Of a stretch of DNA of 64,000 nt, positions 11,596-55,853 are shown in pieces. Made by a program: the position numbers and the translations under genes. This DNA comes from Eledone cirrhosa (taxonomy: Eukaryota). Position 1 is the first letter of the stretch. Each line of letters opens with the position of its first letter. Below the pieces are notes generated by a model. The model made no database searches, was not told the origin of the DNA, and was given only the letters and a program-made list of their open reading frames with translations. Location: NCBI GenBank assembly GCA_964016885.1, contig OZ024742.1:350114001-350178000 (forward strand), in the 5' to 3' direction.

Positions 11596-12127
11596 TGAAA
11601 ATGTATGACCCCGACGGCAGAACTCAAGCCATTTGGACGGCTATTTCTGGACTAAATTAGAATGTTTAGCCTGGTGAATAAATAGCCGAGCTTGTCAAGG
11701 GGGTACTTCCTTATATGGGAAGATTGTAGTTGTCAAGAGGATTGGTTAAAATTTGTTGTAAACAGAAATATGTCTATCATGGCATTTGGTGGGAGGTAGG
11801 GGTGGCTGAACTTGCCTGTAGAACAATAGGAGAGTGAGTGCAGCCGGTCAAGCGTTGAAAGTGATATGTATACAGCAGATTCTAAGGAATTTTAACCAAT
11901 CGTCTTGACAACTACAATCTTCCCATATAAGGAAGTACCCCCTTGACAAGTTCGGCTATTTATTCACCAGGCTAAAAATTCTAATTTAGTCCAAAAATAG
12001 CCGTCGAAACGGCTTGAGCTCTGCCGTCGGGGTCATACATTTTCCTATTTCCCACTCTACTACTCTAAGTATTGAGTACTCTGGTGCGTTATGGTCCATC
12101 TGGTTCCTTACCACAATTCCTTTGTTT
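11596..12127 (+). mobile_element. PLE-type 3'-end fold-back insertion (family A) in (TA)n
   Basis: 11596-11756 is the inverted copy of about 11888-12047, followed by an unpaired ~80-nt tail. Relatives at 13590, 17671, 42598 and 55698. Confidence 0.85.
11939..12032 (+). ncRNA. Type I hammerhead ribozyme, U3-A8 core, full stem III
   Basis: cccc TTGACAA gttcggctatt...aatagccgtc GAA acggc-ttgagctct-gccgt C gggg. Confidence 0.78.
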
Positions 12128-12785
12128 TATATATATATATATATATATATGTAAGTATGTATGTATACGTACATACATATATGTATACAGACGTACAGAA
12201 GCATGCATATATATATATATATATATATATATATATATATATATATATATATATATATATATATATATATATATATATATATATATATATATATATATAT
12301 ATAGATAGATACAGGTACACATACATATATGTACGTATCAGTTTAGCGGACGCTTATTATAACGCCCGCTTTGCTCGTTTGTAAACAAACTGAACAGCCT
12401 GAATTTATGCCGTACGGTGTTAAGGCAACTACGTCACCTTTTTGTTCAACACTGACACAGGAACGATGTACTAGTTTCAAGCTTGTTAGCTATCGTCAGC
12501 ACCTTATACCCTTCTGCCAGATGGTTGAACGTTCGAAAGTACATACTTTCCTTATGAAAATTAACGGCTGAGCAGCCTAATTTGCATATCTGGGACTAGC
12601 TTTTTAAACGGCAGGAGCTCTGTCATCGGGGTTCCGAGTCTCTATTATATAATCCTACTCTACTTCCTCAAGTATTGAGTACTCTGTTGAATAATGGTTT
12701 AACTAGTTTCAAACTGAAGATTATCTCGCGTTCAATCGGGGGTATCCAAAGTAAGTAATGTACTCAATACAAAGCAGAGTATACA

Positions 12786-12925
12786 TATTTAATATAGAAT
12801 ATAGAAAAGCTTCTACAGGGCTAGGACTGTTTCATTCGTGAGAAATCATCAGAACTTCCTGATGATTTCTCAGGAGTGAAACAGTTCTAGTCCTGTAGAA
12901 GTTTTGCTATATTCTGTATTAAATA
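12786..12925 (+). mobile_element. Short fold-back insertion containing an HHR
   Basis: Arms 12786-12852 and 12859-12925 are imperfect inverted copies. Abuts (TA)n. Confidence 0.75.
12851..12905 (+). ncRNA. Type I hammerhead ribozyme, canonical CUGAUGA core, weak stem II
   Basis: aacttc CTGATGA tttctcaggagt GAA acag-ttctagtc-ctgt A gaagtt. Confidence 0.68.
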
Positions 12926-13419
12926 TATATATATATATAGATACATACATATATACACATACAAATGTATATCTATATATCTATATATAGTTACATATAC
13001 TCTCTTTTGCACACACACACACACACACACACACACATATATATATATATATATATATATATATATATATATACATATATATAAGCATGTCTCTATTTTT
13101 AAATGTCTTTAATATTTGTTTAACAATCTATCTTCTATTTTCATTTTAAATATTCATATATACCCACCGACACATAAATACACACATGAATATATATATA
13201 TATATATATATATGTATATATATATATATATGTGTGTGTGTGTGTGTGTGTGTGTGCGTGTCTGAGTATGTATATATATATATATATATATATATATATA
13301 TATATATATATATGCATATTTATATATCGATCGACTTTCGTCAAATCGGACCGAGGAAACAATGTTTCCGTTGGTCTTTCCAATTGCTAATACTATCTAT
13401 CGGTCGCAACTCCAGGTAG

Positions 13420-13541
13420 AAGAAGCAAGGTGAAATAAAGTGTCTGGCTCAAGGACATAACGCATCGCCTGGTCCAGGAGTCGAACTCACAACCTCAAGA
13501 TTGTGAATCTAATTATCTAACCACTCAGCCACACTTCTTCA
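13420..13541 (-). mobile_element. tRNA-derived SINE fragment (CORE-like)
   Basis: Minus strand has A-box-like gtggctgagtggttag and B-box gagttcgactcc, then a segment resembling the CORE/MIR domain (aagtgtctggctcaaggaca on +). Confidence 0.6.
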
Positions 13542-52100: not shown

Positions 52101-55100
52101 TGTATATATAGTTTGTGGTGTATATATAGATGGGAAGGTGTATATATAGTTTGTGGTGGTGTATATATAGATGGGATGGTGTATATATAGATTGTGGTGG
52201 TGTATATATATAGATAGGAAGGTGTATATATATTTTCTGGTGTATATATAGATAGGAAGGTGTATATATAGTTTGTGGTGGTGTATATATAGATGGGAAG
52301 GTGTATATATAGTTTGTGGTGGTTTATATAGAGATAGGAAGGTGTATATATAGTTTGTGGTGTATATATAGATGGGAAGGTGTATATATAGTTTGTGGTG
52401 GTGTATATATAGTTTGTGGTGTATATATAGATAGGAAGGTGTATATATAGTTTGTGGTGGTGTATATAGATGGGAAGGTGTATATATAATTTGTGGTGGT
52501 GTATATATAGATAGGAAGGTGTATATATAGTTTGTGGTGTATATATAGATGGGAAGGTGTATATATAGTTTGTGGTGTATGTATAGATTGGAAGGTGTAT
52601 ATATAGTTTGTGGTGGTGTATATATAGATGGAATGGTGTATATATAGTTTGTGGTGGTGTATATATAGGTGGGAAGGTGTATATATAGTTTGTGGTGGTG
52701 TATATATAGGTGGGAAGGTGTATATATAGTTTGTGGTGGTGTATATATAGATAGGAAGGTGTATATATAGTTTGTGGTGTATATATAGATGGGAAGGTGT
52801 ATATATAGTTTGTGGTGGTGTATATATAGATGGGATGGTGTATATATAGTTTATGGTGGTGTATATATAGATAGGAAGGTGTATATATAGTTTGTGGTGG
52901 TGTATATAGATGGGAAGGTGTATATATAGTTTGTGGTGTATATATAGAGGGGAAGGTGTATATATAGTTTGTGGTGGTGTATATATAGTTTGTGGTGTAT
53001 GTATAGATGGGAAGGTGTATATATAGTTTGTGGTGGTCTATATATAGATGGAATGGTGTATATATAGTTTGTGGTCATGTATATATAGGTGGGAAGGTGT
53101 ATATATAGTTTGTGGTGGTGTATATATAGGTGGGAAGGTGTATATATAGTTTGTGGTGGTGTATATATAGATAGGAAGGTATATATATAGTTTGTGGTGT
53201 ATATATAGATGGGAAGGTGTATATATAGTTTGTGGTGGTGTATATAGATGGGAAGGTGTATATATAGTTTGTGGTGTATATATAGATGGGAAGGTGTATA
53301 TATAGTTTGTGGTGGTGTATATATAGATGGGATGGTGTATATATAGTTTATGGTGGTGTATATATAGATAGGAAGGTGAATATATAGTTTGTGGTGGTGT
53401 ATATAGATGGGAAGGTGTATATATAGTTTGTGGTGTATATATAGATGGGAAGGTGTATATATAGTTTGTGGTAGTGTATATATAGATGGGATGGTGTATA
53501 TATAGTTTGTGGTGGAGTATATATAGGTGGGAAGGTGTATATATAGTTTGTGGTGGTGTATATATAGGTGGGAAGGTGTATATATAGTTTGTGGTGGTGT
53601 ATATATAGATGGGAAGGTGTATATATAGTTTGTGGTGGTGTATATATAGATGGAATGGTGTATATATAGTTTGTGGTGGTGTATATATAGGTGGGAAGGT
53701 GTATATATAGTTTGTGGTGGTGTATATATAGGTGGGAAGGTGTATATATAGTTTGTGGTGGTGTATATATAGATGGGAAGGTGTATATATAGTTTGTGGT
53801 GTATATATAGATGGGAAGGTGTATATATAGTTTGTGGTGGTGTATATATAGGTAGGAAGGTGTATATATAGTTTGTGGTGGTGTATATATAGATAGGAAG
53901 GTGTATATATAGTTTGTGGTGTATATATAGATGGGAAGGTGTATATATAGTTTGTGGTGGTGTATATATAGATGGGATGGTGTATATATAGTTTGTGGTG
54001 GTGTATATATAGTTTGTGGTGTATATATTGGTAGAAAGGTGTATATATAGTTTGTGGTGGTGTATATAGATGGGAAGGTGTATATATAGTTTGTGGTGTA
54101 TATATAGATGGGAAGGTGTATATATAGTTTGTGGGGGTGTATATATAGGTGGGAAGGTGTATATATAGTTTGTGGTGGTGTATATATAGATAGGAAGGTG
54201 TATATATAGTTTGTGGTGTATATATAGTTTGTGGTGGTGTATATAGATGGGAAGGTGTATATATATTTTGTGGTGTATATATAGATAGGAAGGTGTATAT
54301 ATAGTTTGTCTTGGTGTATATATAGATGGGATGGTGTATATATAGTTTGTGGTGGTGTATATATAGATAGGAAGGTGTATATATATTTTGTGGTGTATAT
54401 ATAGATGGGAAGGTGTATATATAGTTTGTGGTGGTGTATATATAGATGGGAAGGTGTATATATAGTTTGTGGTGGTGTATATATAGGTGGGAAGGTGTAT
54501 ATATAGTTTGTGGTGGTGTATATATAGATAGGAAGGTGTATATATATTTTGTGGTGTATATATAGATGGGAAGGTGTATATATAGTTTTTGGTGGTGTAT
54601 ATATAGATGGGAAGGTGTATATATAGTTTGTGGTGGTGTATATATAGGTGGGAAGGTGTATATATTGTTTGTGGTGGTGTATATATACATGGGAAGGTGT
54701 ATATATAGTTATTGGTGTATATATAGATGGGAAGGTGTATATATAGTTTGTGGTGGTGTATATATAGATGGGAAGGTGTATATATAGTTTGTGGTGTATA
54801 TATAGATGGGAAGGTGTATATATAGTTTGTGGTGTATATATAGATGGGAAGGTGTATATATAGTTTGTAGTGGTGTATATATAGTTTGTTGTGTATATAT
54901 AGATAGGGAGGTGTATATATAGTTTGTGGTGGTGTATATAGATGGGAAGGTGTATATATAGTTTGTGGTGTATATATTGGTAGAAAGGTGTATATATAGT
55001 TTGTGGTGGTGTATATAGATGGGAAGGTGTATATATAGTTTGTGGGGGTGTATATATAGGTGGGAAGGTGTATATATAGTCTGTGGTCGTGTATATATAG

Positions 55101-55415
55101 GTGGGAAGGTGTATATATAGTTTGTGGTGGTGTATATATAGATAGGAAGGTGTATATATAGTTTGTGGTGTATATATAGTTTGTGGTGGTGTATATAGAT
55201 GGGAAGGTGTATATATATTTTGTGGTGTATATATAGATAGGAAGGTGTATATATAGTTTGTCTTGGTGTATATATAGATGGGATGGTGTATATATAGTTT
55301 GTGGTGGTGTATATATAGATCGGAAGGTGTATATATAGTTTGTGGTGGTGTATATATAGGTGGGAAGGTGTATATATAGTCTGTGGTAGTGTATCTAGGT
55401 GGGAAGGTGTATATA
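46137..55415. repeat. Minisatellite of two alternating ~20-bp subunits (GTGTATATATAGTTTGTGGTG / GTGTATATATAGATGGGAAG), about 9.3 kb
   Basis: Continuous array seen directly. Confidence 0.98.
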
Positions 55416-55697
55416 CAGTGTCTAAGTGTCTCTGCTTATATACACATTATATATGAGTGTAGTTCATCTGTTTATGTTTATGAAATATAAAAGAATATAA
55501 AAAAAAATTGGTGACAAATACGACCCTTTAAGAACTGTCCAGGTAATATTCACTGATGTCTACATTCTGGTTCTTTGTACAACTATTGAGTCATCTACCG
55601 ATTACCAGACAATATCATCGATATTATTGTGTATTGATTAAAATTATTTATCTCTCTCTCTCTCTCTCTCTGTATATATATATATATATATATATAT

Positions 55698-55853
55698 GAC
55701 GAAGGAAATGTGGTAAGGAACCAGGTTGACTATAACACACCAAAGTATTCAATACTTAGGGTAGTAGAGTAGGTAATAGGAACAAGTAGGACTTAGTCCA
55801 GAATTAGCCGTCGAAACGGCTTGAGCTCAGCCGTCGGGGTCCTACTTGTTCCT
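55698..55853 (-). mobile_element. Family A fold-back micro-insertion in (TA)n
   Basis: Tail on the left, inverted arm gaattagccgtcgaaacggc...cttgttcctat on the right. Confidence 0.82.

Follow-up and report, generated by a model that had tools for sequence, protein, structure and literature searches.

Two fixed ends and short-long arm pairing in head-to-head micro-insertions of a probable Penelope-like family in (TA)n repeats of Eledone cirrhosa

Penelope-like elements (PLEs) have been described with an inverted copy of the 5' end, a one-sided tail of 30-40 base pairs (bp) and (TA)n targets (PMC8557442), and a 31-bp tail on one of two inverted repeats was reported as well (PMC3846280); published work is cited here from the portions of each text that were available. 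PMC8557442 ascribes the tails to resolution by the endonuclease, for which a cut is proposed, and names the origin of the inverted ends and the microsatellite preference as open, and PMC3846280 reads the junction palindromes as self-priming and proposes an antisense template and bidirectional promoters in the pseudo-long terminal repeats (pLTRs). The hammerhead ribozymes of PLEs include a variant with a U3-A8 core and can be paired on opposite strands (PMC4209133), tandem retrozymes are defined in a preprint (bioRxiv 10.64898/2026.07.22.740005), and the standard PLE description in the available sections of PMC8969392 and PMC13282606 gives no account of micro-insertions such as those reported below. 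In vitro, a Poseidon PLE cuts and extends both target strands, and two internal start sites of its reverse transcriptase (RT) bound the genomic tail (PMC11167929). In this work we analyzed a window of 64,000 nucleotides (nt) of Eledone cirrhosa DNA (OZ024742.1, 350,114,001-350,178,000, forward strand; positions below follow window numbering), a repeat-rich stretch of animal type with long (TA)n runs, satellites, open reading frames (ORFs) similar to those of long interspersed nuclear elements (LINEs), as well as several PLEs. The subject is a repeat family, here called family A, whose short insertions were depicted in an initial annotation as hairpins with two fixed end points. The reading we consider best, and probable rather than secure, is that they are severely 5'-truncated head-to-head insertions of a hammerhead-bearing family in (TA)n, made from two independently primed complementary DNAs (cDNAs).

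A BLAST search of the window with one family A arm, which is the source of the copy count, gave 11 matches: the two arms of five copies plus one relative that is 73% alike (12606-12698). All five copies are head-to-head pairs with TA runs flanking each side, at the places where the initial annotation had put them (Table 1; element positions in copies 2-5 are quoted in copy 1 numbering). Most are only 160-210 nt long and strongly 5'-truncated, the two arms of each copy share ~17-160 nt of the same sequence (5/5), and the copies are mutually 8-15% different. The TA runs around them would hide any target-site duplication. The window holds several other duplicated and inverted blocks, and the five copies might in principle be segmental duplications of one insertion, or an assembly artefact. 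We consider this explanation refuted already: the flanks are unrelated (best local score 22 among 45 flank pairs, vs 300 for identity), the copies have diverged from one another, and the same ends occur in independent raw reads of another study.

The two outer ends are fixed. The short arms of copies 2-5 stop on the same base, 12048, which lies 20 nt past the predicted hammerhead cleavage site (12028); copy 1 has either one substitution at the site or a stop 4 nt earlier. The long end falls at the same site in 5/5 copies, 77-80 nt beyond the short end, with local substitutions in copies 1 and 5. Both distances agree with those first proposed, about 20 and about 80 nt. In the four long arms for which TA-type sites of 3 nt were counted, 3-5 others are present per arm and only one is used, so the short end is not just any overlap with TA. 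A short end at the base of stem I was rejected as a general rule, since it applies to family A only and the other families have their short ends 36-231 nt past the cleavage site.

Beyond the window, four of nine listed public runs were mapped to 11755-12140 (386 bases). Two of these (X1 and X2) are contigs from one sample, possibly the source of the window itself, and two (X7 and X8) are restriction site-associated DNA (RAD) reads from an independent study, with 24,811 of 12,467,656 and 25,189 of 12,785,554 reads on the 386-base stretch (~0.2% each). A loose end at 12048 followed by TA was the best supported in all four runs: it was carried by 3618 reads in X7 and 3468 in X8 (28% and 25% of bin depth) and by 257 and 292 contigs in X1 and X2, and a subfamily variant of this end added 500 reads in X7. 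Among the matches listed, to which all loose-end and joint results refer, no other internal site had a TA-joined end (the smallest listed had 488 reads in X7 and 594 in X8), save variants of both known ends. At the long end, base 12127 was the family base in 10,007/11,021 reads (X7) and 10,960/12,282 reads (X8), and depth in the TA bin was 85% (X7) and 84% (X8) of that in the preceding bin. In the RAD runs, molecules that end at 11888, 11975, 11983 and 12118 do so at AATT sites; these ends were set aside as library cuts, presumably of enzyme origin. A metagenome scan with a 24-nt family A pattern gave 0 matches. Scattered end points in a larger sample, which by the terms of the initial annotation would have refuted its reading, were not seen: the same two ends appeared in 4/4 runs. 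We concluded that the two-end feature is real and general in this organism.

The pairing of a short with a long end extends to other families. All nine inverted insertions in the window, from five families, have one short and one long end, for which the probability is 0.002 if each cDNA chooses its site independently and at equal odds. End sites are readable where a sister copy shows the continuation; at five of seven such sites the stretch shared with the TA run is exactly TAT, and at the remaining two it is 2 nt and 1 nt long. An overlap of 3 nt arises at randomly placed cut points with a frequency of 0.08-0.17 (~0.11 per site), giving p ~3e-4 and at most 2e-3. One of the TAT ends (61652) is the only 3' end of a direct-repeat PLE, hence the cDNA start there. 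Mainly because the same TAT overlap marks this sure priming end, we read the short ends as priming sites, and we infer priming in preference to an endonuclease cut of the kind that PMC8557442 proposed for tails.

Arm geometry bears on whether one cDNA or two were made. Suppose that a single cDNA is primed at the long end and then, turning back through a small inverted repeat, serves as its own template; the short end would in that case be either an endonuclease cut at a TA-like site in the element's own DNA or a point of annealing to the other target end, and the tailed arm should always reach furthest 5'. In three of the nine inverted insertions the short-end arm extends further 5' than the tailed arm, by 133 nt (copy 1), ~46 nt (copy 5) and 730 nt (PLE 36130-42583), and each would require a separate one-sided deletion later at the palindrome centre. 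In copy 1 the two matched arms are separated by the 133 nt (11755-11887). A joint of 11755 to 11888 on opposite strands occurs in other genomic copies (5 + 5 contigs; 97 reads from 1 start point and 111 from 2), and in 36 and 37 contigs the family goes on past 11888 with other letters; because of these opposite-strand joints and diverging contigs, we take 11755-11887 to be antisense family DNA of the short-end arm. PLE 36130-42583 is a 6.4-kilobase (kb) head-to-head insertion whose 730-nt spacer encodes the ORF N-terminus on the minus strand (E 2e-26), so that its short-end arm is the longer one; its 2.5-kb arms are 98-99% alike, so little time has passed for a deletion. The copy 1 junction has no overlap, and the template hairpin of copy 1 shows no folding as DNA (0.0 kcal/mol). 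Self-copying is further disfavored by the TAT signature at the sure priming end 61652 and by the in vitro start sites that match the tail edges in another PLE (PMC11167929). On the other side, the 7-nt inverted repeat at which copies 2-4 cross has a weak fold as DNA (-2.6 and -1.8 kcal/mol in copies 2 and 4), insertion 61717-62027 has a perfect palindromic centre, and the shared arm variants and the short-long pairing would be explained by one folded cDNA with no extra assumptions; the tail resolution of PMC8557442 and the self-priming palindromes of PMC3846280 point the same way. We regard the folding back of one cDNA as unlikely, yet as the strongest of the rival explanations.

A single cDNA could also have changed template: begun at the long end on sense RNA, it would jump to an antisense transcript of the same locus and run off at the fixed 5' end of that transcript, which would be the short end. 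Such a jump permits any order of the 5' limits together with one source locus, and antisense templates and bidirectional pLTR promoters have been proposed (PMC3846280), but it demands an antisense start at TAT in five unrelated families and leaves the same signature at the known priming end unexplained; we consider it improbable. The reads also contain weakly supported joints between 11988-11995 and 12040-12065, with 1-3 start points each, in which the end carried per arm is not visible. The short arm is nearest its own long arm in four of five copies, which suggests that each insertion derives from one RNA or one source locus and speaks against the copying of a hairpin as a whole. Copying of the hairpin and tail as a fixed mobile unit with inherited ends, resembling either a miniature inverted-repeat transposable element (MITE) or the RNA of a short interspersed nuclear element, would suit the very high copy number in X7 and X8, the near-identical junctions in copies 3, 4 and 30 contigs, and the TA on both sides. 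However, the inverted repeat is not terminal at both ends, the junctions differ among the five copies, private variants are common to both arms in copies 1, 2, 4 and 5 (as fits a hairpin made afresh from one source), and the 6.4-kb ORF-bearing PLE has the same two-end anatomy. We give a fixed unit very little chance.

The inner junctions had been described as variable. They do differ among copies, but most pile up in stem II of the hammerhead: copies 2, 3 and 4 cross inside the 7-nt imperfect inverted repeat (copy 3 before its mismatch, copy 4 after), the short arm of copy 5 begins at 11986, and depth goes up 9- to 11-fold from bin 11976-11988 to bin 12002-12014 in 4/4 runs. The junction type of copy 3 was present in 30 contigs (X2). 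Part of the depth step is subfamily divergence, as 1029 and 829 reads run upstream of 11998 with a different stem II, and the AATT site at 11983 also influences RAD reads near the step. From the pile-up we infer that the RT stalls in stem II; a discrete 5' end of the RNA is the alternative. An A/T difference between the arms of copy 3 was discarded as a sign of two templates, being explained by the crossing point of the junction in the imperfect repeat.

The family A hammerhead is predicted to have its core at 11943-11949, a long stem II, GAAA, a 4-bp stem III with a 9-nt loop, and cleavage after 12028; the descriptor match spans 11943-12028, near the 3' terminal repeat. It is whole only in copy 1, and copies 2-5 are without its 5' half. 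Core position N7 (11947) is polymorphic in reads, and roughly half of the RAD reads have a T to A variant at 12022 that would lengthen stem III by one base pair. Rfam gave no family A hammerhead at E up to 1, and its microRNA matches, below the gathering score, were dismissed as hairpin and TA artefacts. Just before the ribozyme (11912-11932) is what we take to be a promoter-like CC(A/T)6GG box with a TATA-like core, and a presumably octamer-like motif, likewise promoter-like, upstream of hammerheads is common to two other families (12579-12587; 14716-14726).

Family A is very probably a PLE family. In 5/5 copies an inverted 5'-truncated copy adjoins the insertion, a tail of 77-80 nt is present at one end only, and TA runs, an AT-rich microsatellite target, lie on either side; the PLE-type anatomy noted initially was thus borne out and matches PMC8557442. 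A pLTR partial tandem was seen in 0/5 of these short copies, perhaps too truncated to show one, and is present in two other families of the window. The two neighbouring PLE ORFs are related to each other, and among atlas look-alikes of one of them (score 0.94-0.97) some clusters have RVT_1 in 40-78% and GIY-YIG in 21-47% of members. Pfam returned 0 families for both ORFs, a PDB sequence search gave a single match (E 0.69, disregarded), and the longest upstream piece of family A, 11755-11940, had no other match in the window. Three other assignments were rejected: a MITE (~80 nt lie outside the inverted repeat on one side, and the centres differ), a retrozyme of the non-LTR type (all 11 window matches are head-to-head arms or the one distant relative, with no tandem containing whole hammerheads), and a LINE-1 twin-priming inversion (the arms copy the same RNA stretch in 5/5 copies).

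In the two-cDNA mechanism, a PLE-type enzyme would nick both strands of a TA repeat and one cDNA would start from each strand, the first 20 nt past the ribozyme and the second ~80 nt further on; both ends would be priming sites, where the 3' end of the target would pair with UAU in the RNA. The two cDNAs would come from one RNA or one source locus and would usually stall while unwinding the long stem II hairpin. The stalled cDNAs would then be joined via the small inverted repeat in stem II, or bluntly, host repair would fill in, and the 80-nt difference between the arms would constitute the family A tail. A more detailed and tentative version, which we hold to be possible but doubtful, places an asymmetric PLE dimer on one RNA: one RT would sit at each tail edge, each primed by one strand of the TA break through the 3-nt UAU pairing, the distal enzyme would displace the proximal cDNA, and stem II would act as a brake that leaves the cDNA ends on the small inverted repeat where they join. 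If this is true, what have until now been regarded as two separate peculiarities, the inverted copy and the tail, would be one obligatory product.

The two-site priming proposed in the initial annotation stands in part. It is supported by the fixed position of both ends, by the TAT overlap seen at the short end and by copies 1, 5 and PLE 36130-42583, which favor two cDNAs. Against it, the start sites in PMC11167929 did not differ between strands and showed no homology to the DNA that was cut. Other points also weigh against two independent primings. The nine insertions, drawn from a single window and five families, are only partly independent of each other; six of them fit either model, and copies 2-4 fit a folded cDNA equally well. 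The evidence for the copy 1 spacer joint is 5 + 5 contigs from a single sample plus reads with 1-2 start points, a later loss of ~45 nt between two 4-nt repeats of a hairpin gives the same result in copy 5, and the short arm of copy 3 has one difference fewer from copy 1 than from the long arm of copy 3 itself. Four of the five TAT ends continue as TATT, containing the ATT motif cut by the Poseidon enzyme, as the folding of one cDNA with a cut short end would have it. No read among the matches listed and no window copy takes family A past its long end, so that the overlap with the target is unreadable there. Short-end reads amount to ~0.38 (X7) and ~0.33 (X8) of long-end depth, not 1; library bias is a likely cause (AATT molecule ends inside the element, short arms aligning over ~55 nt), and on this uncorrected ratio tailed copies with no inverted arm may be common. 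A further 1137 loose-end and 50 joint matches lie beyond those listed. Finally, no family A copy in the window reaches an ORF and the parent ORF was not found; with no ORF linked to the family, its enzyme is assumed from the anatomy and the neighbours.

Table 1. Features of family A and of other insertions in the window
Feature	Position	Strand	Basis or remarks
Type I hammerhead motif, U3-A8 core, predicted	11939..12032	+	descriptor scan, fold
Favoured zone of inner junctions: imperfect inverted repeat of 7 nt on the stem II 3' strand	11981..11999 (11981-11987 vs 11993-11999)	+	copies 2-4, depth step
Short (proximal) end site, TAT overlap with target run	12046..12048	+	base of extended stem I in predicted fold; top loose end in 4/4 runs
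Tail, ~80 nt, finishing at long (distal) end site	12049..12128	+	depth runs on into TA
Copy 1, short-end arm, antisense; includes 133 nt (11755-11887) absent from tailed arm	11594..11887	-	arm comparison, reads, contigs
Copy 1, tailed arm; blunt junction 11887/11888	11888..12128	+	no overlap; 'both' = 0 in joint table
Copy 2, short-end arm; then 4-nt loop 13644-13647	13589..13643	-	
Copy 2, tailed arm	13648..13782	+	
Copy 3, tailed arm; shares a few overlapping bases (microhomology) with the short arm	17670..17817	-	
Copy 3, short-end arm	17815..17864	+	
Copy 4, short-end arm; within TA run at tailed end of ORF-bearing PLE	42597..42653	-	
Copy 4, tailed arm	42651..42795	+	
Copy 5, tailed arm; starts 4 nt past cleavage site	55696..55792	-	
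Copy 5, short-end arm; ~46 nt further 5' than tailed arm	55793..55855	+	
Hammerhead family with partial tandems, unequal ends ~64 nt apart	13830..15464		
Inverted pair, tail ~160 nt, putative class	15627..17659		no hammerhead or ORF found
ORF-bearing PLE, other family; short-end arm 36130-39787 (-), tailed arm 39788-42583 (+)	36130..42583		tail ~87 nt; short-end arm 730 nt further 5'
Direct-repeat PLE, RT + GIY-YIG-like ORF, U3-A8 hammerhead	55948..61652	+	sole 3' end overlaps target by TAT
Hammerhead family, inverted pair, tail ~61 nt	61717..62027		perfect palindromic centre

Copies 2, 4 and 5 each lie in a TA run that terminates another PLE insertion (13548-13831, 42583-42599 and 55858-55908), a pile-up in shared TA runs. 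The 73% relative, on the plus strand within 12330-12930, continues with no intervening TA into the inverted pair of another hammerhead-like family, which has its short end at ~12925. To the left of the direct-repeat PLE, 55906-55947 holds two short TA-separated fragments with an end motif resembling the family A short end in antisense. That PLE has a minimal U3-A8 hammerhead in each repeat (repeats 99% alike), an ORF split by a frameshift between 56301-56903 and 56831-58933, and ~2.4 kb of non-coding DNA before the second repeat. PLE 36130-42583 has a C3-G8 hammerhead at 42393-42450, and its ORF contains an asparagine-rich stretch, as in the rotifer PLEs of PMC3846280. The TA-flanked insertions 10563-11260 and 17886-18414 both contain a 95-nt and a 432-nt block (94-96% alike), with the order and relative orientation of the blocks exchanged between the two insertions; the former ends in a 110-nt tandem duplication. 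Elsewhere, 1-8830 holds a tandem pair of LINE-like copies with (TATC)n ends, along with an inverted piece of that family, and strongly G-skewed satellite arrays with periods of ~25, 31 and 41 nt occupy 20076-30300, 33373-34400 and 46095-55430, the 31-nt array being built of degenerate TTAGGG-like units.

The basic signature, an inverted copy and a tail with two start sites, is already known, and the two-site idea is in print in the 2024 in vitro study; the additions here are the short-long pairing, the TAT overlap and the arm geometry. In the PLE literature searched, in the portions available and with older PLE reviews not covered, no report of strict short-long pairing or of the TAT overlap was found. 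How PLEs make inverted ends is an open mechanistic question, and among the papers found only one PLE protein has been studied in vitro. Family A is abundant (~0.2% of reads in two libraries) and its insertions are readable end to end, so that one genome provides a large natural test of two cDNAs against the folding of one. For the in vitro assay already in use, short-long pairing and TAT overlap amount to specific predictions.

In LINE-1 twin priming, two target ends each prime a cDNA, and microhomology joins the products into a 5' inversion. The second site varies in that process and the parts copy different RNA stretches, whereas in family A both sites are fixed and the same stretch is copied. 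Non-LTR retrozymes (bioRxiv 10.64898/2026.07.22.740005) resemble family A in being non-coding, in the type I hammerhead, in the tie to PLE terminal repeats and in their many solo copies; as described in the available text they are head-to-tail tandem units with a whole ribozyme each, whereas the family A copies here are single head-to-head pairs. The type I U3-A8 hammerheads of PLEs (PMC4209133) show the same core covariation as family A and PLE 55948-61652; the predicted family A ribozyme departs from a minimal motif in its long stem II and in its stem III of 4 bp, which carries a 9-nt loop.

Insertions of endonuclease-positive PLEs, as presented in the available parts of PMC8557442, PMC3846280 and PMC8969392, share with family A the head-to-head copy, the one-sided extension, the 5' truncation, the hammerhead in the terminal repeat and the (TA)n targets. 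The family A tail measures 77-80 nt (~61-160 nt in its neighbours) against the 30-40 bp cited for PLEs, and family A further differs from the described insertions in being mostly 160-210 nt long, in missing the 5' half of the ribozyme and in that its parent ORF was not found. Poseidon PAc of Anolis carolinensis (PMC11167929) resembles family A in its AT-rich target and in a tail delimited by two fixed ends that lie downstream of the hammerhead. For PAc, both strands were cut and extended in vitro and a dimer is predicted; the inverted junction is not treated in the available text of that study. The PAc start sites are alike for both strands and have no homology to the cut DNA, whereas the readable ends described here mostly overlap the TA run by TAT and are paired short with long.

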